Shown one piece after another: positions 2,036 to 16,366 of a stretch of DNA of 16,548 bases; the first letter of the stretch is position 1; each line of letters starts with the position of its first letter. The position numbers and the translations under genes are program-made. Location of the stretch: the sequence record LR881103; one strand, 5' to 3'. The notes beneath the pieces were generated by a model that was given only the letters and a program-made list of their open reading frames with translations, was not told where the DNA came from and did not search any database. The stretch comes from Escherichia phage vB_KppS-Ant.

Positions 2036-4333
2036 ATGGCAGGTAAATCATTAGGCACTCTCACCATTGACCTGATCGCCAGAACCGGCGGTTTTGTCCA
2101 GGGTATGGATAAAGCCGAACGTTCATCACAAAAATGGCGGGATAACGTTAAAAAAGATGCCGCAGCCGTGGGTTCAGCCCTTGCTGCTGTTGGCACAGCC
2201 GCAGCAGCGGCGGCTATCGGTGTTAGTGCCGCTGGTATTGCACTGGTAAAAAATACCTCAGAGCAGATCACTGAAACTGATCGCTGGGCTAAATCGCTAA
2301 AAATGTCTACTCAGGATTTGCTTTCATGGCAGTTTGCTGCTGAGAAAGCAGGGTTGACCGGGGATAATATTGCTGACATCTTCAAGGATATTAACGATAA
2401 AGTCGGCGATGCTGTCCTGAACAAGTCAGGTGAGGCTGCTCAGGCTCTGGATACTCTCGGGCTTTCAGCTGAGAAACTGGCCCAGCAATCCCCTGATAAG
2501 CAGTTACTGGCTATCAGCTCGGCATTGCAAAAAATCCCCTCTCAGGCCGGGAAAACTAATATCCTCGAAAGCCTGGGGAATGACCTGTCAAAAATGCTGC
2601 CGTTGTTCGACAACAATAACGAGAAGCTGAAGCAGTTTATCCAGCTGTCAAAAGATTTTGGTGTCGCTCCGCCCCAGGAGGATATTGATAACCTGGTTAA
2701 GGTTAATCAGTTTTTCCAGGATATTGAGAGCAGTGCACAGGGGTTAAAGATCGAGATTGCCAGTGGCCTGGCTAAAGTAGACCTCTCACCGATTCAGGAT
2801 GGACTTGATGATATCCGGGATGTGTTTACCGATCCTGCTGTTCTGTCAGGTCTGGCAAAGCTGGTCGGAGGGATGGCGGAACTTGTTGGCTGGATGGGTA
2901 AGCTAAGTTCTGAATCTGCTAATTTTCTCAGCCATATATTTGAAGTGCCTGACAGGTTTAAGGCGGGTGGCTGGTACGAGTTTGAAAAAAATCAGAGATT
3001 AGGAGCAATAGCAGATACGCTTCAATCAGATTTAGGGGGAATAACTAAACCATCTTCAAACTCTGAGTTGCCAATAAATAATAACCTGCTCCCCGGGCAG
3101 AGCAATCAGAAACAAACTCAAAAGCCTGATGCTGAGGCAAAAAAACTTGAAAGTGCCTATAAAGCCGTAGAACAGTCATATTTAAAGCAAATTGCGCTGG
3201 TGGATCAGCTAACCGGGAAAACCAAAGACGCCACTGAAGTAGAAAAACTACATTTCGATTTAGTATCTGGTCGTCTGGTTGGGATAAATAAAGAACAGCA
3301 AATCAGGCTTGAGGGCTTGGCCTCAGAAGTTGATAAATATAACGCGTTGTCAAAATTTCGAGATTTGCAGGATGAGTTATTAACTCCAGAAGAAAAATTA
3401 CTTAAAACGACGAGAGAACGTTTTGAAATATTAAAAGATATTCAGGGAATGAAGGGGATCAGCCCTGATGAATATAAAAAAGCAGCAGAAGCCATATCGA
3501 AAGATTCATTTACAGATATGCCTAAATTTAGTGGTCTTGATCCGATGTTTGGCGGTCAATCTGGAGAGTTAAGAAAAGTTGATGACGCACAGAAAGAACA
3601 GGAAAAATGGTATCAGAATCAGCTCGATTTGCTGGAACAGAACCGTCAGGCACGTTCTGACCTTAATGATGAGTGGGATGCCAGAGAGCTTGAACTGAAG
3701 AAAAAACACCAGGATGAAATGAATAAGCTCGATGAAGCCCGTAATCAGCTGATGTTGAGCAGTGTTGTCGATGGGCTTGGTTCTATGGTGGATTTGACCC
3801 GTACAGCTTTTGGTGAGCAATCAGGAGTATACAAAGCCGCGTTTGCAGTTCAGAAAGCCGCGGCTATTGCTCAGTCTGTTATCGCTATCCAGCAGGGGAT
3901 CGCGATGGCGGCTGCAAACCCTTTCCCGTACAACCTTGCAGCGATGGCCAGCGTAGCCGCTTCTACAGCCGGTATTGTGTCGAACATTGCGGCCGTGGGT
4001 ATGGCTCACGATGGTATTGATGCTGTTCCAGAAACCGGAACATGGCTTCTCCAGAAGGGCGAACGCGTAGTCACGGCGAATACCAGCGCGAAACTGGATG
4101 CGACCCTTAACCGTGTCGCCCAGCAATCCACTTCTGGTAATCAGATTTCCCAGGAATTTAATTTTAACGTTAATGGCGATCCTTCTGATGCTCAGATAGC
4201 CATGATGAAGAAAGCGGCCGCTGACGGTGCCAAGATGGGGTATCAAAAGGCGGTCAATTCAGTAATTACTGGTCAGGGTGATTTGCACAAGGCTCTGATG
4301 ACGAAAACTAATTCAGGCAGAAAAATAGGGTGA
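2036..4333 (+). CDS. Tail tape-measure-like protein (lambda gpH family architecture)
   Basis: 765 aa; N-terminal GTLTIDLIARTGGFVQGM segment followed by an Ala-rich hydrophobic stretch; long central charged Lys/Glu/Gln-rich helical region; C-terminal hydrophobic Ala/Gly-rich block then GIDAVPETGTWLLQKGERVVTANTS, which resembles the conserved C-terminal motif of lambda-family tape-measure proteins; strong RBS (AAGGAG) upstream. Confidence 0.65.
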   Translation: MAGKSLGTLTIDLIARTGGFVQGMDKAERSSQKWRDNVKKDAAAVGSALAAVGTAAAAAAIGVSAAGIALVKNTSEQITETDRWAKSLKMSTQDLLSWQFAAEKAGLTGDNIADIFKDINDKVGDAVLNKSGEAAQALDTLGLSAEKLAQQSPDKQLLAISSALQKIPSQAGKTNILESLGNDLSKMLPLFDNNNEKLKQFIQLSKDFGVAPPQEDIDNLVKVNQFFQDIESSAQGLKIEIASGLAKVDLSPIQDGLDDIRDVFTDPAVLSGLAKLVGGMAELVGWMGKLSSESANFLSHIFEVPDRFKAGGWYEFEKNQRLGAIADTLQSDLGGITKPSSNSELPINNNLLPGQSNQKQTQKPDAEAKKLESAYKAVEQSYLKQIALVDQLTGKTKDATEVEKLHFDLVSGRLVGINKEQQIRLEGLASEVDKYNALSKFRDLQDELLTPEEKLLKTTRERFEILKDIQGMKGISPDEYKKAAEAISKDSFTDMPKFSGLDPMFGGQSGELRKVDDAQKEQEKWYQNQLDLLEQNRQARSDLNDEWDARELELKKKHQDEMNKLDEARNQLMLSSVVDGLGSMVDLTRTAFGEQSGVYKAAFAVQKAAAIAQSVIAIQQGIAMAAANPFPYNLAAMASVAASTAGIVSNIAAVGMAHDGIDAVPETGTWLLQKGERVVTANTSAKLDATLNRVAQQSTSGNQISQEFNFNVNGDPSDAQIAMMKKAAADGAKMGYQKAVNSVITGQGDLHKALMTKTNSGRKIG

Positions 4334-4786: not shown

Positions 4787-4803
4787 TGAACCCAACCAAT
4801 CAA

Positions 4804-4837
4804 AGCACTGGACTATGTTCTGGTGCTTTTTTATTTG
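4804..4837 (+). terminator. Rho-independent terminator (hairpin then T-tract)
   Basis: agcactgg...ctggtgc stem followed by tttttta ttt immediately after the 4786 stop. Confidence 0.5.
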
Positions 4838-4849
4838 TGCGAGCCAACG

Positions 4850-4871
4850 TGTATAAACATATGTATAAACA
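4850..4871. repeat. Tandem pair of TGTATAAACA decamers (left copy of a 22-bp composite repeat)
   Basis: tgtataaaca-ta-tgtataaaca at 4850..4871, repeated 21/22 at 5083..5104. Confidence 0.7.
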
Positions 4872-4875
4872 CTAA

Positions 4876-4915
4876 TAAAAAAGGCGCTTCCCCATGCCGA
4901 AGAGCGCCTTTTTAA
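4876..4915. terminator. Bidirectional intrinsic terminator-like hairpin flanked by A-run and T-run
   Basis: aaaaaAGGCGCT...AGCGCCTTttt: 8-bp stem (4881..4888 with 4903..4910) with A-tract upstream and T-tract downstream. Confidence 0.5.
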
Positions 4916-5082
4916 ACAAGCATTTAACTGATTGGTATCAGTTCATGCCGTACTGTCATATTAGCTGTTTTCATGCTTTTAGATGATTTTAATATTCATA
5001 TAATAATCAATGTGTTGTATAAATTCATGCCTGTATATTGTTCCAGTGTTTTTCTTTGTTTATGCTATTATGCAAGCAATTC

Positions 5083-5104
5083 TGTATAAACATTTGTATA
5101 AACA
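5083..5104. repeat. Tandem pair of TGTATAAACA decamers (right copy), just upstream of the integrase start
   Basis: tgtataaaca-tt-tgtataaaca at 5083..5104; candidate integrase arm-type sites. Confidence 0.7.
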
Positions 5105-5122
5105 CTTTGGGCTGGGTGGTCT

Positions 5123-6343
5123 ATGGCTGGCGAACTTAACAAACTGAGCGACAGGAAGTTAAAGGGATTACATGGTATCCCGGCCAGTAAGATTGAGTTC
5201 TATGCTGATGGTGCCGGGCTGAGCGCCAAGGTAACTAAAGCTGGTGGTATTAGCTGGGTGTTTACTTACCGACTCGACGGGCAGAAGCTGCATCGTCTTA
5301 CTCTGGGACGATACCCGGATATGAGCCTCAAAGAGGCCCGTTCTTCGCGTGATAAATGCCGCCAATGGCTGGCCTCAGGTAAAGATCCAAAGCACCAGTT
5401 GGCGCTGACCACTCAGGAAACGCTTAAACCGGTCACTGTTAAGGAAGCTATAGAATACTGGATACGCGAATATGCAGAAGAGAACCGCGCGAATGTTGAA
5501 CGGCACAAAGCGGAGCTGCGAAAACACATTTATCCTTATATAGGGAAAATGGCGCTCGCTGACTGTGAAACACGATACTGGCTTGACTGCTTTGACAGGA
5601 TGAAAAAGAAAACTCCAGTCGCCGCAGGTTATGTGTTCCAGATGTGCAAACAAGCCCTGAAATTCTGCCGGGTTCGTCGCTATGCTGTGAGTACCGCGCT
5701 TGAAGATTTAACAATTCCAGATGTCGGTAAAAAACAGGCAAAAAAAGACCGGGTATTAAACGATAAAGAGGCTGGCGATTTATGGGCTGCCATTTCCTCT
5801 GGCACTTGCTTCATGCCTTACTACACCAGGCTACTGACAATCTTAATGGTGTTTGGGTGCCGAACGCAGGAGGCCAGGCTATCAGAGTGGAGTGAATGGG
5901 ATATGGATGCCTGGGTCTGGACAGTTCCCAAAGAGCACAGCAAGGGCGGCGAGAAGATTGTAAGACCTGTGCCGGATGCCATGCGCAAATTCATTGAAAT
6001 ACTGCATGATGAAACGAAACGATCCGGCCTTTTGCTTGGGTCGGTTAAAGGCAGTGAAGCGGTAAGTCAGTGGGGCCGCGGTGTTTATAAAAAGCTGGGG
6101 CATTCTGAACCATGGACACTGCACGATCTAAGACGAACTTTAGCAACGCATATGAATAATATGGGTATAGCACCACACGTTGTCGAACAGTTGTTGGGGC
6201 ACTCAATGCCGGGAGTTATGGCGATTTATAACCGTAGTCTGTACTTGCCTGAGAAACTGGATGCGTTGAATAAATGGTATGACAGACTTGATATTTTATC
6301 AGGTGGATTCACTAACATTGTTTTGTTGAATAGGGCTGAATAA
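5123..6343 (+). CDS. int: Tyrosine site-specific integrase, P4-type (N-terminal arm-binding domain plus C-terminal catalytic domain)
   Basis: 406 aa; N-terminal L.D.K...GL.....G..W.F.YR..G.....LG.YP..SL.EAR...D pattern of P4-like integrases; C-terminal HDLRRT ... LLGH ... Y catalytic signature. Confidence 0.9.
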   Translation: MAGELNKLSDRKLKGLHGIPASKIEFYADGAGLSAKVTKAGGISWVFTYRLDGQKLHRLTLGRYPDMSLKEARSSRDKCRQWLASGKDPKHQLALTTQETLKPVTVKEAIEYWIREYAEENRANVERHKAELRKHIYPYIGKMALADCETRYWLDCFDRMKKKTPVAAGYVFQMCKQALKFCRVRRYAVSTALEDLTIPDVGKKQAKKDRVLNDKEAGDLWAAISSGTCFMPYYTRLLTILMVFGCRTQEARLSEWSEWDMDAWVWTVPKEHSKGGEKIVRPVPDAMRKFIEILHDETKRSGLLLGSVKGSEAVSQWGRGVYKKLGHSEPWTLHDLRRTLATHMNNMGIAPHVVEQLLGHSMPGVMAIYNRSLYLPEKLDALNKWYDRLDILSGGFTNIVLLNRAE

Positions 6344-6993
6344 TGACTAGTTTTCTAAAATTGGGTATTTTCGAGCGAGAAGCCAAAGCCCCGGAACTCA
6401 ATATTAAACAACTTGCACTACTTATGTGTGGGGTAGATCCGACAGTTAAAACTGCTGATATCCCTGAGGCGAAAGTTGAAGCTTACAATATATACTATCG
6501 ACAACTGAGTAGATGGTTATCAGCATCTAAATTATTTCGAGGTGGAAACTCAACAGCCTATCCCGCAGACTATATGTTTGCTCTGGCATATCCTCTTATT
6601 GATGAAGATATTACACCACAACCCATAAAGGACAGATGCCTTGCAGCGGTGGCTATAATTGCTAATCAAAACAAAGGAAAAGAGCATCTTTATGCTATGG
6701 GAGGGGATGAGCTTTTACAGGTCGGAATTGCATTGAAAAGCAGCAAACGCGGCTTGCATCGTAAAGAAGATGAAAAGGAATATAATGATAAATTAATGGG
6801 GATGCTGGTCAAGCTTATAGCACATAAGATAGGCCATTCGTTTGGCACCTCTAAAAAACCAAGCATCTCGGCTATTTTAAACGAACTATATAAATTAGCT
6901 GATGAGGAAGGTATATCTAAAACTGGATTATCCAAATCAGCAATATATGATAAAATTCGCAAGGCATTAAATTCGATTTATTATACGGAATGA
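6343..6993 (+). CDS. Hypothetical protein (216 aa), AT-rich cargo gene translationally coupled to int
   Basis: Start overlaps the int stop (TAATG); codon composition visibly more AT-rich than the neighbouring core genes; no recognisable catalytic motif. Confidence 0.55.
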   Translation: MTSFLKLGIFEREAKAPELNIKQLALLMCGVDPTVKTADIPEAKVEAYNIYYRQLSRWLSASKLFRGGNSTAYPADYMFALAYPLIDEDITPQPIKDRCLAAVAIIANQNKGKEHLYAMGGDELLQVGIALKSSKRGLHRKEDEKEYNDKLMGMLVKLIAHKIGHSFGTSKKPSISAILNELYKLADEEGISKTGLSKSAIYDKIRKALNSIYYTE

Positions 6994-7129
6994 ATATTAT
7001 TTTGCAGTGTTAGTGGGTGTTATTTATATTTCATGTGAAAATACTAATTAATTATATTTGTTGGAGCTTTTGGCGATTCTATGATCGCCAAGGAGATTCA
7101 ATTGTTATATTTGATGTTTATTACAGTTA

Positions 7130-7229
7130 CATTCAACAGCATTCAACAGCATTCAACAGCATTCAACGACACGTAACGACACGTAATGACACGTAACGGC
7201 ACCCGACAGCACCTAACAATACCTAGCTC
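7130..7229. repeat. Array of ten contiguous 10-bp units (CATTCAACAG x3, then progressively diverged copies)
   Basis: cattcaacag at 7130, 7140, 7150; cattcaacga, cacgtaacga, cacgtaatga, cacgtaacgg, cacccgacag, cacctaacaa, tacctagctc follow with strict 10-bp period. Confidence 0.8.
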
Positions 7230-7270
7230 CATCCACGGTCTCTACTAGGTCATTACTTGCTAACTTTTTC

Positions 7271-7337
7271 CATCTTTGTTCATGGTTATTCATCACTGTT
7301 CATCAGCGTTCATCATTGTTCATCTTTGTTATGAACA
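7271..7337. repeat. Second 10-bp-periodic array: TGTTCATC-type units (about 5 direct copies plus 1 inverted copy)
   Basis: catctttgtt catggttatt catcactgtt catcagcgtt catcattgtt catctttgtt then atgaaca; the unit is one mismatch from the TGTTCACC octamer clustered at 11720..11950. Confidence 0.75.
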
Positions 7338-7379
7338 ATCCAAGGCGAATCAAATCGTTAAAGAACGGTGATCTTCGGC

Positions 7380-7583
7380 GAGTTATTGAAATTCATGATT
7401 TTTTCTCTCGCGACAGCCGTTGAAATTACTGTGGAAATTGTTTTCAACAGGGGAGCGTTATCTTGATGGAATTTCTATCTTTCAATGGAATTGCGTGTTC
7501 TTTTAAAGGATTCCAGAATCAATGGAAATGCTGGTCGTTTATCCACTAATCTCTTCGCATAACATTGAAACAGTGGAGGCAGC
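7380..7583 (+). promoter_or_regulatory. alpA upstream regulatory region with dispersed TGGAA(A/T)T and TTGAAATT repeats
   Basis: gtggaaattg (7431), tggaattt (7467), caatggaattg (7483), caatggaaatg (7520); ttgaaatt at about 7386 and 7421; promoter not confidently placed. Confidence 0.3.
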
Positions 7584-7868
7584 ATGCAAAATATAACCTT
7601 TACCCCGCCAAATCCTGAACAACGCCGCACCCTTTTAGAAGAGTACGGCTTTAAGTTTGATCGCCGAATCCGTGAAGATGAATGCAGCGAGATCACCAGT
7701 CTTTCCCGTTCCAGCCGCTGGAAGATGGAACAGCAGGGGCGCTTCCCTCCGCGCTGTCACTTTGGCCGCAATAGCTGTGCTTGGCTTCTTTCGGATGTGC
7801 TCTGGTGGGTTCGTAATCCGCCAGCAGTAGAGAACGTCAATAACCCATACAGCCGTAAATCTGCTTAA
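7584..7868 (+). CDS. alpA: AlpA-family phage transcriptional regulator (excisionase-like HTH)
   Basis: 94 aa; ...SEITSLSRSSRWKMEQQGRFPPRCHFGRNSCAWLLSDVLWWVRN matches the AlpA-family HTH pattern; GGAGG RBS; position downstream of int as in P4-like and PICI elements. Confidence 0.7.
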   Translation: MQNITFTPPNPEQRRTLLEEYGFKFDRRIREDECSEITSLSRSSRWKMEQQGRFPPRCHFGRNSCAWLLSDVLWWVRNPPAVENVNNPYSRKSA

Positions 7869-7888: not shown

Positions 7889-8581
7889 ATGAAAAAGATT
7901 AATGCCCTCCACGGGCAGGGATTCGCTCACCCTGTAGCCAGCCAGCACGATATTTCAGCGAACCGTAAACAGGTTATTGCCGGTGACTGGTCGCCCATTA
8001 ATCGCGGTGAATTTACGCTTGCCGATCTGGGGTTGCGCCACAACGGTAACGGGCTGGTGTGGCTGCGTTCCGGCGTGTCCGTGCATGAGGCAGACCATGA
8101 TGCAGGGATAAGCGGCAAGGACAAGACCAAAGGAAGGGTTAACGGCCTTCCTTTTGAATTTGTCGGCCAGTGGCAGGAATACCCGACTAAACGCAGCTTT
8201 GCCGTTTCAGTATCTACGGAACTACGGCGCCAGTATTACCCGGACGATGCCGCATTCAGTAAGGCAATGCGTGAGGCTGGTTATGTTCCGGTGCGCACTC
8301 GCAAACTGACCGGAAAGGATGCTCGTTTTTGGCTGTACCGTGTAACGGGCAATGATAAGGGGGTTGTCGCAGCAGAATCCGCGCCACACAAGGCTTGCGC
8401 GCCAGTTGTCCAGACCATATCTAAGCCTCATCCGTGGTTTAAGCGTGTGGCACTCGATGGTAAATGGCAGTACGTCTACGCAGATCACATCCGCTTTCTG
8501 ACTAAAAAGCGTCATCGCGTCGATGGTGTTCGGGTTCAGGGGTATACCGCTGGCGGGCTGAAAGTGGAGGCTATTGTATGA
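7889..8581 (+). CDS. Hypothetical protein (230 aa) between alpA and the replication module
   Basis: Protein-like composition; stop overlaps next potential start (ATGA); function not recognisable from sequence. Confidence 0.55.
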   Translation: MKKINALHGQGFAHPVASQHDISANRKQVIAGDWSPINRGEFTLADLGLRHNGNGLVWLRSGVSVHEADHDAGISGKDKTKGRVNGLPFEFVGQWQEYPTKRSFAVSVSTELRRQYYPDDAAFSKAMREAGYVPVRTRKLTGKDARFWLYRVTGNDKGVVAAESAPHKACAPVVQTISKPHPWFKRVALDGKWQYVYADHIRFLTKKRHRVDGVRVQGYTAGGLKVEAIV

Positions 8582-8593
8582 CAGGCAAAACAA

Positions 8594-8615
8594 AGGCGGC
8601 CATGCCGGGCCGCCT
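8594..8615. other. GC-rich hairpin (8-bp stem, 6-nt loop) right after the 7889..8581 stop; terminator-like for minus-strand readthrough
   Basis: AGGCGGCC-atgccg-GGCCGCCT; the U-tract lies on the minus-strand side (complement of aaaacaaa at 8586..8593). Confidence 0.35.
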
Positions 8616-8923
8616 GAGTCTCAACGCTTTACTGAAACATCGCCAGATTACCAGGCTTGCCGCTGGTGGTCAAACCTTGAGCCAACGAAATCCGTACGCA
8701 CAAATTAACCGCGTACGTTTAACGTACGGACATCGCAATCCATTGAAGGAACTTGATTATAACGAATCGTTAGAATCGGCTGGCAACAAACACGAACAGT
8801 ATTCGGGTTCGCCTGAACATCAACACTGCTTAGGTTCAGAGGTTCCGACGAATAACGTAGAGAGCTGCGAAGATAACCAACCCTCTTTAAGAGGTGAGCC
8901 TCTGCACAACGCATTAAGAGTTG

Positions 8924-8950
8924 CGCAAAACAACCCCTCTTTAAGAGGGG
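8924..8950 (-). terminator. Rho-independent terminator for the minus-strand RHH gene
   Basis: Minus-strand reading: CCCCTCTT-a-AAGAGGGG followed by ttgtttt, about 35 nt downstream of the 8982 stop; a second similar palindrome CCTCTTTAAGAGG lies at 8881..8894. Confidence 0.55.
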
Positions 8951-8981
8951 CAGTTCACAGCATTACGGAGAGTAACCCTGT

Positions 8982-9185
8982 TCAGCTTTCAGGTTCCGAT
9001 CTGGCTTTCTTGCGCTGCTCAGATTTGAGTTTGCGCCCGCAGGCATCCAGAACCCACGCAGAGAAATTAGCACCGGCGTTATCTGCTTTCTCTCGCTCTA
9101 CGCTGGCGTCAATCTCTTCAATAAGTTCGTGCGGAAATCGTATCTTTTTCTGCGCTGATTTAGCGTTTACTGCCTTAGTAGCCAT
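8982..9185 (-). CDS. Small ribbon-helix-helix-like DNA-binding protein (67 aa), candidate repressor
   Basis: KIRFPHELIEEIDASV...NFSAWVLDACGRKL fits a beta-strand / helix / helix RHH (Arc/CopG-like) layout; strong RBS AGGAGG 4 nt before ATG; own terminator; divergent from the replication operon promoter. Confidence 0.55.
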   Translation of the reverse strand: MATKAVNAKSAQKKIRFPHELIEEIDASVEREKADNAGANFSAWVLDACGRKLKSEQRKKARSEPES

Positions 9186-9198
9186 TTACCCTCCTGCG

Positions 9199-9271
9199 TA
9201 TAGTGAGGGTACACCATATCAGAAAAATAGCTTGACGTGTACCCCCACCGAAAATATAGTGGGGGTGCACC
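9199..9271 (+). promoter_or_regulatory. Near-consensus sigma70 promoter (TTGACG-17-TATAGT) overlapped by three operator-like 12-mers GTG(A/G)GGGT(A/G)CAC
   Basis: -35 TTGACG 9232..9237, 17-nt spacer, -10 TATAGT 9255..9260; 12-mers at 9203..9214 (+), 9237..9248 (inverted) and 9259..9270 (+); 17-bp direct repeat tatagtgagggtacacc / tatagtgggggtgcacc. Confidence 0.55.
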
Positions 9272-9363
9272 TTGAGGTTGAAGATACTCAAGATACAGCG
9301 AAGCCCGGCAGTGTTACCAGCACTAACCGGGCCTCTGACCACAACGTAACTGAGGCTTACATC

Positions 9364-9552
9364 ATGGCTTGTATACAGCATACCCAAACTCGCCCCAAAT
9401 ATCAGTATCGTTTTCTTGCGCTGAGCGCCATCGGGCGCAACGTCATTCACATCACCGCTACCACTGAGCGCGAAGCCCGTGAGCAATCACCGGATGGATG
9501 CGTGATGGTATTCGCTGGTCGTCTGCCAGTTCGGGAGGGGCACCATGCGTGA
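9364..9552 (+). CDS. Possible small leader protein (about 62 aa), 3' portion of the long ORF 8578..9552
   Basis: ATG at 9364 with GAGG 8 nt upstream, downstream of the 9232..9260 promoter; sequence MACIQHTQTRPKYQYRFLALSAIGRNVIHITATTEREAREQ... looks more protein-like than the upstream part of the frame. Confidence 0.3.
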   Translation: MACIQHTQTRPKYQYRFLALSAIGRNVIHITATTEREAREQSPDGCVMVFAGRLPVREGHHA

Positions 9553-9739: not shown

Positions 9740-9954
9740 GACAGGTTCCTTTTGAAGTCCTGATGCACGCTGAAAATGCCCTTTCTGAAAGCGAAGGAGC
9801 CTATGAGGTTCTCAGCATGTGGCTAGACAGTATTCCTGAAAGCGAGGAGTTCCACGGTGAAGCGTGCAAGGTAAGCGCAATCATGTCGCTGCTGCATAAA
9901 TCTATCGGCGAGCTGGTGAAAGCGCGGGAGGCTTACAGTGAAAAACGCGCCTAA
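9736..9954 (+). CDS. Hypothetical small acidic protein (72 aa)
   Basis: ATGA overlap with the upstream ORF; Glu-rich; overlaps the helicase start. Confidence 0.45.
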   Translation: MRQVPFEVLMHAENALSESEGAYEVLSMWLDSIPESEEFHGEACKVSAIMSLLHKSIGELVKAREAYSEKRA

Positions 9955-11689
9955 TGTGAAAACCCTCCCGCGCGACAAAATGGAGGAGGCCATCATCTTT
10001 GCTGGAACGGGAGCATGGAAAGCCGCTCAGGATTACCAGAAAGGGAAGGGCGAGCATGGAGACGATGTTCCGCCTGTGGTTCTGGATCACACCCAACTGG
10101 CGGAATTACCACACCTGCGCATTGTTGATAAAGGCCGTCGATTTGCCCGTGTCTGTCAGGCCGGGCTTATCGAGCAAAACCAAATCAGCATGATTGCAAA
10201 TAAGTTGTGTGAGGCTGGCGTTACCAATGCTGAGTTTATCAACGAACAAGGCGAGAAAGAGGACTGGACGCCATTGATGAAACGTCTGGAAGACGAGCCC
10301 CTTATGGTGACTACGAGGGGAAGTGCTACGCCAGCGCTTAACCAGATGGGAGCCAGCCAGCGCGGGGAAGTTCTGCTTGCTCATTACAATGGCAATCTGG
10401 CGATCCATGCTGATTCCGACACGGTTCATCATTACAACGGCGTGGTGTGGGTTCCGCTTTCGGATAAAGAGCTGCAGCGAGAAATGGCGCAGATTTTTAT
10501 TGATTCCGAAGTCGCCTATTCGCAGAACGCGATTAAATCCGCTGTCGATACAATGAAGCTGGGCCTCCCGGTAATGGGTAACACAGCCCGTAACCTGATT
10601 GGTTTCAGCAACGGGGTTTTTGATACCCGGTTAGGCCAATTTCGACCGCATGATAAAAAGGACTGGCTTATCGTTGCGAGCGAATTGCCATTCAGCGAAC
10701 CAGCAGAAGGTGAAACTCTGGCAACCCATGCGCCTAACTTCTGGAAATGGCTCCGCCGCTCTGTGGCGGATAATGACCGAAAAGCAGACCGCGTACTGTC
10801 TGCGCTGTTTATGGTGCTGGCGAACCGGTACGACTGGCAGCTGTTTCTTGAGGTAACGGGGCCGGGCGGAAGTGGTAAAAGTGTCATGGCTGAGATCTGC
10901 ACGATGCTGGCGGGCAAGGCCAATACGGTATCGGCGAGCATGGCGGCGCTGGAGAACCCAAGGGAAAGGGCGCTGGTAGTTGGCTATTCGCTGATTATCA
11001 TGCCGGATATGACCCGGTACGCTGGCGACGGCGCAGGGATTAAAGCTATCACTGGCGGGGATAAGGTGGCTATCGACCCAAAACACAAAGCGCCATATTC
11101 AACCCGTATCCCGGCGGTGGTGCTGGCCGTCAATAACAATGCTATGACGTTCAGTGACCGCAGCGGCGGTATTTCAAGGCGACGGGTGATTTTCAACTTC
11201 ACCGAAGTAGTGCCGGAAAACGAACGCGATCCGATGCTGGCCGAGAAGATTGAAGGAGAGCTTGCGGTAATCATCCGGCATCTGCTTGTGCGCTTTTCCA
11301 GCCAGAACGAAGCCAAACAGCTTTTGCATGAGCAGCAGAAATCAGAAGAAGCGCTGGCCATCAAACGTGAAGGGGATTCACTGGTGGACTTTTGCGGATA
11401 CCTGATGGCTTCGGTGGTTTGTGATGGAATGCTGATTGGTAATGCCGAGATCGTGCCATTCAGCCCGCGCCGTTATCTGTATCACGCTTATCTGGCTTAC
11501 ATGCGGGCCAATGGTCTTAGCAAGCCTGTATCGTTAATGCGGTTCGGTACGGATATGCCAGGCGCAATGGCTGAATATGGCAAGGAGTACCAGAAGCGCA
11601 AAACTAAAAATGGCATAAGATCGAACGTCACCCTGCATGATGATTCAGAAGACTGGATGCCAATGTGTACCGATACAACAAAAGAATAA
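9938..11689 (+). CDS. Replication protein: P4-alpha / D5-family SF3 helicase (phage/plasmid primase C-terminal type), probable origin-binding initiator
   Basis: 583 aa; Walker A GPGGSGKS about 300 aa in; D5_N-like region upstream (HYNGVVWVP); GTG start with GGGAGG RBS; iteron cluster immediately downstream. Confidence 0.8.
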   Translation: MKNAPNVKTLPRDKMEEAIIFAGTGAWKAAQDYQKGKGEHGDDVPPVVLDHTQLAELPHLRIVDKGRRFARVCQAGLIEQNQISMIANKLCEAGVTNAEFINEQGEKEDWTPLMKRLEDEPLMVTTRGSATPALNQMGASQRGEVLLAHYNGNLAIHADSDTVHHYNGVVWVPLSDKELQREMAQIFIDSEVAYSQNAIKSAVDTMKLGLPVMGNTARNLIGFSNGVFDTRLGQFRPHDKKDWLIVASELPFSEPAEGETLATHAPNFWKWLRRSVADNDRKADRVLSALFMVLANRYDWQLFLEVTGPGGSGKSVMAEICTMLAGKANTVSASMAALENPRERALVVGYSLIIMPDMTRYAGDGAGIKAITGGDKVAIDPKHKAPYSTRIPAVVLAVNNNAMTFSDRSGGISRRRVIFNFTEVVPENERDPMLAEKIEGELAVIIRHLLVRFSSQNEAKQLLHEQQKSEEALAIKREGDSLVDFCGYLMASVVCDGMLIGNAEIVPFSPRRYLYHAYLAYMRANGLSKPVSLMRFGTDMPGAMAEYGKEYQKRKTKNGIRSNVTLHDDSEDWMPMCTDTTKE

Positions 11690-11719
11690 AGGCGGGGAAA
11701 ATTAAAAGTAATGGGATAA

Positions 11720-11950
11720 GTGTTCACCACTGTTCACCATGTATAAAAATCATTAAATAACAATATGTTAATGGGTGAACACTTTTTTATGAAGTGTTCA
11801 CCAAGTATTCACCTGTTCACCCTGTTTTATCTTTTCCTCAGTTTGAGGTGAAGGGTTGGGTGAACACTAGTGAACACCTGAAAGAATAGTATTCACCCTG
11901 TAACTATATGAATTTAATTAATAAATTATCAAAGGTGAACAGGTGAACAC
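11720..11950. promoter_or_regulatory. Origin-like iteron cluster: at least 10 copies of TGTTCACC / GGTGAACA (and the TATTCACC variant) in both orientations in AT-rich DNA
   Basis: Copies at about 11721, 11731, 11774 (inv), 11794, 11805 (variant), 11814, 11859 (inv), 11869 (inv), 11889 (variant), 11934 (inv), 11942 (inv). Confidence 0.65.
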
Positions 11951-12095
11951 TTAAACGTATATTTTTTAATTTTATTGAGCAACGCAGGATCACTTCCAGC
12001 CTGGAATACCTGGGATCAATCATGGAACACGCACCGTGGAATATTAAAAGCTAATATTTTTGTAAATTATTTGTATTCATGTTTACTCATTCTTA

Positions 12096-12123
12096 CCCCC
12101 GTCTTTTGCGGGGGTTTTCTTTA
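12096..12123 (+). terminator. Rho-independent terminator between the replication and head modules
   Basis: CCCCCG-tcttttg-CGGGGG (6-bp GC stem) followed by ttttcttt. Confidence 0.6.
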
Positions 12124-12289
12124 TATTTTTCATGTATATCTTGAAGAGTGGCACTCAGACGTGAGCCGCCACTGGCCGTTAAGTCAAGCTGTAGCGAGTA
12201 CAGCCTGCGAGAGGCAGAAAAAGATTTAACGGCCTCCCCTCCAAGCGCTGGTTTCACGTCTCTACATTAATTGATACGGAAACCACTCC

Positions 12290-15923: not shown

Positions 15924-16366
15924 TGCCGTGGCAACCCTTACGCCGTTGCACTGAGCCGGGATGCAACAAGCGCGTGAAGTCTGGTAAATGCGATGAGCAT
16001 AAACGGGAGGTGTGGCGGGCACAGGATGCCAGACGCGGCCACCGTCGCGCCCGTGGTTACTCAGCAGCATGGGAGAAGTATCGCGCCCAGTATCTAAAAC
16101 GCTATCCCCTGTGCGCTGAGTGCCAGAAGCAGGGCCTCTTCGTTCCTGCAAAGATTGTCGATCACATCATCCCTATCGACGGCGGTGATGATGTTCTGTT
16201 CTGGCCTGAGTGGAATCACCAGCCGTTATGCCAGACGCATCATAACCAGAAGACCACACAGCAAGACCCTATCACCAAAGCCAATCGCAAAGCGGGGATG
16301 TACCACGAGCAGGAAGAGCGGGCAGCACAGCGCAATAACTGGATGTATGAGGTTGATCATGAATGA
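15923..16366 (+). CDS. HNH endonuclease (terminase-associated type)
   Basis: 147 aa; Cys pairs CTEPGC and CAECQ plus DHIIPIDGGDD...NHQPLCQTHHNQK HNH signature. Confidence 0.85.
   Translation: MPWQPLRRCTEPGCNKRVKSGKCDEHKREVWRAQDARRGHRRARGYSAAWEKYRAQYLKRYPLCAECQKQGLFVPAKIVDHIIPIDGGDDVLFWPEWNHQPLCQTHHNQKTTQQDPITKANRKAGMYHEQEERAAQRNNWMYEVDHE

Follow-up and report, generated by a model that had tools for sequence, protein, structure and literature searches.

Phage-inducible chromosomal islands (PICIs) of Gram-negative bacteria are governed by the master activator alpA, which activates its own promoter and is induced by a helper phage; the inducer is described as unidentified, and a global repressor in these elements as 'unclear' (PMC6092414). 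For the Stl (Rpr) proteins of Gram-positive PICIs, diversity is thought to reflect helper specificity (PMC6092414). PICIs are also reported to carry immune systems at the 5′ or the 3′ end (PMC11364771, citing Fillol-Salom 2022). Capsid-forming PICIs (cf-PICIs) have been described as a class whose features include a size of ∼15 kb (10.1101/2022.09.08.507074), and near-identical cf-PICIs have been found across several genera (10.1101/2025.02.11.637232). Here we describe Escherichia phage vB_KppS-Ant (sequence record LR881103), analyzed over a stretch of 16,548 nt that we refer to as the window and that, by its gene content, is a complete cf-PICI in its excised or packaged form. Our subject is ORF216, an AT-rich open reading frame (ORF) between the integrase gene int and alpA, and the block of DNA with which it is exchanged among related satellites.

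The features that define this block are the following:
5123–6343, + strand: int, a P4-type tyrosine integrase of 406 aa with Arm-DNA-bind_3, Phage_int_M and Phage_integrase domains (phrog_1)
6343–6993, + strand: ORF216, 216 aa with an ATG start, the next gene after int
∼6287–7571 (∼1.25 kb; outer limits approximate): the exchangeable AT-rich 5′ cassette, which takes in the end of int, ORF216, the array-bearing spacer and the alpA promoter region
7584–7868, + strand: alpA (phrog_2790), aligned with homologues annotated as Pfam Phage_AlpA, downstream of the cassette

The stop codon of int (6341–6343) and the start codon of ORF216 (6343–6345) share one base (aTAATGact from position 6340), and the sequence at 6340–6346 therefore bears out an earlier interpretation of this DNA, which we call the sequence-only reading, in which ORF216 starts on the int stop and is translationally coupled to it. 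The limits of the cassette became visible by comparison with sister elements that carry other genes in the slot between int and alpA (L011–L014; loci are given by such numbers where they have to be told apart). These elements aligned to the window until 6283–6330 and again from 7558–7572. The exchanged block takes in the last ∼13–57 nt of int and reaches up to 12–26 nt before the alpA ATG, and each cassette therefore brings its own entire alpA promoter. Judged from these alignments, the AT-rich block coincides with a recombinational unit.

The content of the slot proved to be highly variable. In E. coli elements at the same attachment (att) site, Int and AlpA were 92–98% and 83–98% identical to those of the window, and the slot genes were unrelated to ORF216: a DUF6387 protein, a 272-aa protein, 309- and 313-aa proteins (phrog_7144) and a 270-aa protein. 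Between ORF216 and either DUF6387 or the 272/309/313-aa family, BLASTP found no match and hhalign gave probabilities of ≤0.2%. An annotated gene was present in the slot in all of the best 19 of 33 E. coli records with the same backbone (≥80% identity). The sequence-only reading had proposed to compare related elements for variability of this slot, and the comparison returned DUF6387 and unrelated 270–313-aa genes between near-identical Int and AlpA. The slot genes of L011–L015 had GC contents of 0.34–0.40, the cassettes of L012–L014 encode a common N-terminus that resembles a helix–turn–helix (HTH), and the DNA immediately before alpA holds inverted or direct repeats that are particular to each cassette type, inverted ones in the case of L012–L014. 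DUF6387 genes that lie directly upstream of alpA and overlap the int stop were also seen in E. coli satellites, a metagenomic remnant and ICEKp258.2 (L011, L027, L021). In the literature we found DUF6387 only as an annotation beside alpA in the K. pneumoniae ST258 island ICEKp258.2 (PMC10763509), and it looks like a second Int/AlpA-linked slot family.

ORF216 itself belongs to a small family with a fixed address. We followed it through 14 contexts: the window, E. coli (three att sites), Yersinia, Proteus, Rahnella, Brenneria, metagenomes, a 12-kb circular 'plasmid' that resembles an excised satellite, and two large replicons. Across these contexts, which span at least four att sites as well as several replication modules, protein identity to ORF216 ranged from 25 to 100%; the host elements were cf-PICIs and satellites without capsid genes, with three primase types. 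The ORF216-family gene followed a P4-type integrase gene in all 14, usually with an overlap of 1–4 nt between the int stop and its own start (ATGA or TAATG), and alpA was the next gene in 12, 290–590 bp downstream. With this conserved order of int, ORF216, arrays and alpA, the gene is, on comparative grounds, not free-floating cargo.

A profile search of 1.84 billion proteins returned only 47 representatives (at 50% identity), nearly all of 200–240 aa, and the homologues fall into 23 clusters at 90% identity, from Enterobacterales. The exact protein occurs on 759 contigs as a 'hypothetical protein' with K. pneumoniae and 'MULTISPECIES: Enterobacteriaceae' as sources, and names in the rest of its 90% cluster come from Salmonella, Citrobacter and E. 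coli. ORF216 matches phrog_30524 (PHROGs v4) over its full length (E 1.3e-120) and is a member of that family, which has no annotated function, so that membership is uninformative. Between lineages, the proportion of nonsynonymous differences (pN) was 0.14–0.28 and that of synonymous differences (pS) 0.66–0.83, the latter saturated, with a dN/dS of ∼0.1 where computable. By this pattern of substitution, ORF216 is a real gene under purifying selection.

The composition of the block sets it apart from its surroundings. ORF216 has a GC content of 0.382 (0.30 at third codon positions, GC3), the spacer that follows it (6994–7583, 590 bp) 0.375 and the last ∼220 nt of int 0.39–0.41, compared with 0.50 for the whole window and 0.51–0.56 (GC3 0.52–0.66) for the core genes alpA, primase, capsid, protease and portal. 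The sequence-only reading was thus right that the 3′ end of int, the ORF and the following spacer form an AT-rich block, but this block is not the only one: similar stretches are found in the attP region (4800–5200), at the origin of replication (11600–12200) and in part of a 765-aa ORF (3000–3800). In every lineage measured, from Proteus to Yersinia to E. coli, the ORF216-family gene and spacer were lower in GC than the neighboring int and alpA, by 6–15 points in nine of 11 loci and by 3–4 points in L017 and L021. Because this gap recurs in every lineage and synonymous sites are saturated, the AT-richness is a maintained trait rather than an un-ameliorated recent import. The proposal that ORF216 is horizontally acquired cargo can therefore be kept only in part: the block is indeed swapped between near-identical elements, but its AT-richness is no sign of recent import and the gene is not free-floating.

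In addition, an identical IS1A insertion interrupts ORF216 at nt 492 in three strains of E. coli (TUM9754, DETEC-P61 and S163-2; IS1A at 16001–17246 in L022 and at 7221–8466 in L026). It takes away residues 165–216. In two of the three strains the cf-PICI is otherwise annotated as intact and is still integrated; in the third, a deletion next to IS1 extends from ORF216 to the capsid gene, with loss of alpA and the primase gene.

A hypervariable slot with unrelated AT-rich genes between 92–98% identical Int and 83–98% identical AlpA at one att site is what would be expected if ORF216 were an accessory anti-phage or helper-interference protein in the 5′ variable (immune) region of the PICI, made constitutively with Int. 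It would then have no catalytic activity and would bind a phage protein or DNA, for example blocking the assembly, packaging or replication of a helper or competitor, and the arrays and the alpA promoter would merely be neighboring regulatory DNA travelling along. Constitutive expression together with int would be fitting for a defence gene, PICIs are known to have small interference proteins without enzymatic activity, such as Tai (PMC11364771), and the tolerated IS1 disruption of ORF216, like the splitting of the 313-aa sister gene in L015, is as expected of dispensable cargo. On the other hand, neither ORF216 nor four sister slot genes matched any of 5027 PADLOC models (PADLOC-DB v2, E ≤ 0.1), and ORF216 has no enzymatic, transmembrane or known sensor domain. 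Defence genes are usually also found in islands, prophage moron loci and plasmids, whereas in all 14 contexts this family was seen only in the slot behind int, and the conserved, family-specific phased arrays described below would be left unexplained. The sequence-only reading had noted that integrase-proximal slots often hold defence or anti-defence genes; the placement of PICI immune systems at the 5′ end (PMC11364771) agrees with this, and ORF216 has no support from the PADLOC models. We regard a defence or interference role as a tentative possibility, close to the reading that we prefer and nearly as likely. With the alpA promoter and phased arrays inside the block, a role in the control of satellite induction is suggested at least as strongly as one in defence.

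The spacer between ORF216 and alpA contains these features, with scores from Tandem Repeats Finder (TRF):
7070–7091, + strand: perfect 8-bp hairpin TTGGCGAT-TCTATG-ATCGCCAA, 77 nt 3′ of the ORF216 stop
7130–7240: tandem arrays A and B, ∼11 head-to-tail 10-bp units (CATTCAACAG three to four times, CACGTAACGA three times, CACCCGACAG and CACCTAACAA); TRF scores 76 and 62
7271–7340: tandem array C, six 10-bp units nnTGTTCATC (TGTTCATC), ending in an inverted TGTTATGAACA; TRF score 64
7466–7528: four TGGAAT boxes in the order +,+,−,+, just upstream of alpA, the last overlapping a −35-like position

Arrays with a period of 9–11 bp were concentrated in ORF216-to-alpA spacers, at 3.5 per kb compared with 0.1 per kb elsewhere in the same 13 loci (35-fold), and TRF detected them in the spacers of 11 of the 13. 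By contrast, TRF found no such array in the other cassettes L011–L014, where the spacers between gene and alpA are 94–181 bp long. Array unit sequences are lineage-specific, whereas their periodicity is conserved; array C has a GTTYR core at 10-bp intervals that is found again in the relatives L030, L031, L032 and L003. The window has ∼17 units in total, and along arrays A and B the unit drifts from CATTCAACAG toward CACGTAACGA and CACCTAACAA. Since the copy number of the CATTCAACAG unit (7130–7169) varies between elements that are 99% identical, with two copies in L001 (GN06667), three in the window and five in L002 (OW1E2), slippage appears to be ongoing. The arrays and spacer had no match in Rfam. 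We also considered them as P4-type crr/Rep iterons and rejected this, as spacer and origin shared no repeated 7-mer, AT-only words aside, in six loci; only array C of the window (TGTTCATC) is one base from an origin iteron (TGTTCACC), with no parallel in relatives.

No intrinsic terminator was found in a scan of the + strand from 6994 to 7583, and the hairpin at 7070–7091 is not a canonical one, as no T-run follows it. The TGGAAT cluster at 7466–7528 is the only one in the window (0.075 expected) and has the same arrangement in L001, L003, L009 and L019. Because related TGGAAAT motifs precede alpA in other cassette types as well, we set these boxes aside as an operator for ORF216; they are probably the binding region of AlpA or of another (helper) activator.

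As to the protein, AlphaFold (AF2) models (predicted local distance difference test, pLDDT, of 83 for the full length and 88 for the N-domain) suggest an all-alpha protein of three parts: a compact and conserved N-domain (residues 1–112), a central helix of 52 residues and two C-terminal helices. The central helix carries RGxHRKxDE, the most conserved motif of the family, and the C-terminal helices carry a G-[LIV]-x-K/R-S-T-[FIV]-Y-x-K motif that looks like an HTH recognition helix in its sequence, with all HTH matches below threshold. These sub-threshold Pfam matches were to AlpA, SpoIIID and a Mu HTH (HTH_Tnp_Mu_2), with E values of 0.012–0.075. Conservation along the chain was 0.87 (residues 1–33), 0.67, 0.79, 0.74 and, at the C-terminus, 0.59, and the protein is mildly basic (isoelectric point, pI, 9.0).

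The sequence-only reading had recognized no catalytic motif in ORF216 and had advised a remote homology search and structure prediction with Foldseek. Profile and structure searches likewise turned up no catalytic motif in the family, no known family and no fold neighbor. There was no family for ORF216 in Pfam, NCBIfam or PADLOC, and PHROGs gave only phrog_30524. A profile search of the PDB returned nothing at E < 0.4 (best match, the Brinker HTH at E 0.41), and Foldseek of the model against the PDB nothing at E < 0.9, with no structural HTH neighbor. Our literature searches brought up no paper that describes the gene. The family is an uncharacterized orphan without a fold neighbor.

Three candidate identities were tried and rejected. 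Weak matches to Peptidase_M10 and archaemetzincin had raised a metzincin or zinc metalloprotease, but there is no HExxH: the matches rest on AHKIGH (residues 160–165), in which the Glu is absent, and homologues have K, N or Q in place of H161. Homology of the C-terminus to AlpA was dropped, as its alignment with the AlpA recognition helix covers 18 columns at an hhalign probability of only 3.7%. Finally, excisionases and recombination directionality factors (RDFs) such as Xis, Cox and AlpA are winged HTH (wHTH) proteins of ∼60–110 aa, whereas ORF216 has 216 aa, is predicted to be all-alpha and has no Pfam match above threshold.

The reading that we tentatively prefer is that ORF216 is the protein part of an exchangeable 5′ control cassette and acts as a DNA-binding gatekeeper or insulator of alpA induction. 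ORF216 would be translated together with Int from a constitutive int transcript, and would therefore be present while the satellite is integrated and quiescent. It may oligomerize via its long central helix, and its HTH-like C-terminus could coat the phased arrays between its own gene and the alpA promoter. Such a coat would keep the self-activating alpA off, through insulation from int read-through, upstream occlusion or both, until a factor of the helper phage overcomes the block. Some insulation is needed because int and alpA are co-directional. If ORF216 gates alpA in this manner, exchange of the cassette would change both the timing and the helper of satellite induction.

Several observations are in line with this proposal. 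The occurrence of arrays in 11 of 13 ORF216-family spacers, with none detected by TRF in L011–L014, suggests that they belong with this gene. The C-terminus, which would contact them, is the least conserved part of the protein (0.59, compared with 0.87 for the first residues), and this parallels the lineage-specific array sequences. An all-alpha fold with a 52-residue helix, a pI of 9.0 and repeated HTH matches, even if below threshold, would also fit a DNA-binding protein. A gatekeeper of alpA would account for the coupled translation with int, the fixed gene order, the arrays peculiar to the family, the co-travelling promoter and the variable C-terminus, and it would bear on the published gap around a repressor and an inducer in Gram-negative PICIs (PMC6092414).

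A number of points weigh against such a role. ORF216 has no significant match to a DNA-binding domain, and the arrays lie 250–450 bp upstream of alpA, a long distance if a simple repressor is assumed. Since the IS1-truncated alleles sit in integrated elements, intact ORF216 is not needed for quiescence. Sister cassettes without arrays serve the same AlpA, and one satellite with a related int (66% nt identity) has no gene in the slot at all. In the published model, based on a plasmid reporter, the helper activates alpA and does not act by derepression (PMC6092414). Co-inheritance of gene, arrays and promoter could also be explained trivially by recombination in the conserved flanks.

The arrays might instead act alone in cis, with ORF216 as unrelated cargo, either as phased sites for an alpA activator of the Xis/Cox/Apl type from the helper or the satellite, or as a C-rich, Rho-dependent insulator behind the int operon. 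There are precedents for the first version: P2 Cox activates the satellite P4 (PMC3936717), the RDF sites described in the literature consist of direct repeats spaced by one helical turn (PMC7498355), and a PICI and its helper are reported to show crosstalk at the level of excisionases (PMC11773190). The second would agree with the absence of an intrinsic terminator after ORF216 and with an 80-nt stretch in nine of 11 spacers in which C exceeds G by 11–21, a count made without a control; C-richness is not universal, however, as L021 and part of L003 are G-rich. The arrays are missing from sister cassettes with 97% identical AlpA, and their restriction to ORF216 would be left unexplained. The spacer also had no blastn match in 50,697 phage genomes, for which reason we rejected a phage origin for it; the ORF216 protein likewise had no tblastn match there. 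We therefore consider arrays that work without ORF216 unlikely.

The overlap of int stop and ORF216 start, kept over deep divergence, and the inclusion of the Int C-terminal tail in the swapped block could also speak for an accessory factor of the integrase, for example one that affects the directionality, stability or site choice of Int. This is very improbable. Ints that are 97–98% identical function at the same att site with unrelated slot genes, so that ORF216 and Int do not co-evolve, and a Xis-like function is already supplied by AlpA (PMC6092414). The arrays are ∼2.2 kb from the att core (4875–4914), too far for arm sites, and the repeats that flank attP (TGTATAAACA) differ from them in sequence.

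The control of alpA proposed for ORF216 could be one instance of a broader arrangement. In this broader view, which is possible if rather doubtful, the slot would not be a cargo bay but a swappable module for induction specificity, functionally equivalent to the missing Stl-like repressor, in which ORF216, DUF6387 or phrog_7144 proteins, each with its own alpA promoter and operators, choose the helper. For ORF216, an Int-co-translated oligomer on the 10-bp arrays would be displaced or overridden by a helper factor.

The wider setting of the cassette is given by the following features of the window:
23–379: TerS, the first gene in window order
363–2024: TerL, after TerS
2036–4333, + strand: 765-aa ORF directly 3′ of TerL, with an AT-rich middle (3000–3800)
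4875–4914: attP core, a sequence that copies integrated at the E. coli yhdJ/fis site have in both attL and attR
9938–11689: D5/P4-alpha-type primase, 3′ of two ORFs that follow alpA

The right part encodes capsid, prohead protease, portal, connectors and HNH. With int, alpA and pri-rep followed by origin iterons, a complete head and packaging module (capsid, protease, portal, connectors, HNH, TerS and TerL) and an att site of its own, the window has the gene content of a cf-PICI. We read it as the excised or packaged form because attR-side and attL-side sequences are joined within it (attP): 4816–4914 matches the attR side of L022 at 90% and 4875–5150 the attL side at 96%. Homology to the integrated copies begins at 4869. 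The E. coli copies are integrated between yhdJ and fis and share 99% identity with the window over int, ORF216 and alpA. The ends of the window fall between HNH and TerS, presumably the place of cos.

Two 39-nt direct repeats (4835–4873 and 5068–5106), 233 bp apart, flank the attP core and carry TGTATAAACA doublets; they may be arm-type Int sites. The origin of replication (11700–11975), 3′ of the primase gene, has ∼9 iterons (GGTGAACA / TGTTCACC) in both orientations and an AT-rich center. Its iteron is presumably the same as the type I iteron of P4 alpha, and relatives have iterons of their own (GGTGGAGA, CTGTGCACC and GGTAGACA). Between origin and capsid operon (11995–12050) we noted another cluster of TGGAAT-like boxes, weaker than the first (CTTCCAG, CCTGGAAT, CATGGAAC and CGTGGAAT), which may be a late promoter dependent on AlpA or another activator.

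Two further genes attracted our attention. The second of the two ORFs after alpA (324 aa; 8578–9552, + strand) has an Icd-like C-terminus: its last ∼50 residues match the domain of an Icd-like cell-division inhibitor (NF033153, E 1e-15), and it also matches PHROG 'transcriptional repressor' families. E. coli relatives have Icd-like proteins as separate genes of 63–70 aa. The 765-aa ORF has a full-length match to phrog_2854, 'tail length tape measure protein' (E 2e-176), as well as matches to 13 more tape-measure PHROGs, with no match in Pfam, PADLOC, NCBIfam or PDB sequences. cf-PICIs are described as tail-less, yet this tape-measure-like ORF is present, and we saw no other tail gene in the window.

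The cassette offers a testable handle on how helper phages switch on Gram-negative PICIs. Should it set induction specificity, it would explain helper range and provide a tool for the engineering of satellite 'drones'; should ORF216 instead be an immune or interference protein, it would represent a new fold-orphan defence family. Either way, AT-richness is a long-kept property of the module, which corrects the inference of a recent import.

Among known systems, the PICI 5′ accessory ('immune') region is the closest in position. The slot between int and alpA that marks the PICI 5′ hotspot is occupied in this way in 12 of 14 contexts, the window among them, and variable, AT-rich contents with often hypothetical genes are shared features, so that in position and variability the ORF216 slot matches this known region (Fillol-Salom et al. 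2022, as cited in PMC11364771). ORF216 differs in having no known defence domain by PADLOC and in being tied strictly to its slot, and in the available papers we found no description of a unit in which an ORF coupled to Int is exchanged together with phased arrays and the promoter of alpA. The arrays have a parallel in those bound by oligomerizing wHTH proteins (P2 Cox, 186 Apl, lambda Xis and RdfS; PMC3936717, PMC7498355, PMC11963761), which are likewise ∼10-bp head-to-tail repeats beside a promoter that governs the decision on lysis or induction. In contrast to these systems, the protein here has 216 aa and is no wHTH excisionase (hhalign probability 3.7% with AlpA), and the window has ∼17 units that drift within one array.

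The mosaicism of immunity regions in lambdoid and P2-like phages (P2, P2 Hy dis and WPhi; PMC1904268) resembles the cassette in that a gene and its promoter/operator DNA are replaced together on near-identical backbones, and P2-like immunity operators can be direct repeats that vary in sequence and spacing (PMC1904268). Here, however, the regulated gene alpA and the integrase gene do not change, the exchanged proteins are mutually unrelated, and their regulatory role is proposed by us. Stl and ORF216 are alike in being int-proximal, all-alpha and diversified, in lying beside the induction control region and, for ORF216 as we propose, in being expressed together with int during quiescence. Stl has a recognizable N-terminal HTH and is transcribed divergently from the operon that it represses, whereas ORF216 has no significant HTH or structural match and is co-directional with alpA, with the arrays in between. 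By analogy, then, the ORF216 cassette may be functionally most like Stl-type or immunity-region modules, in an arrangement that does without the divergent transcription of Stl.

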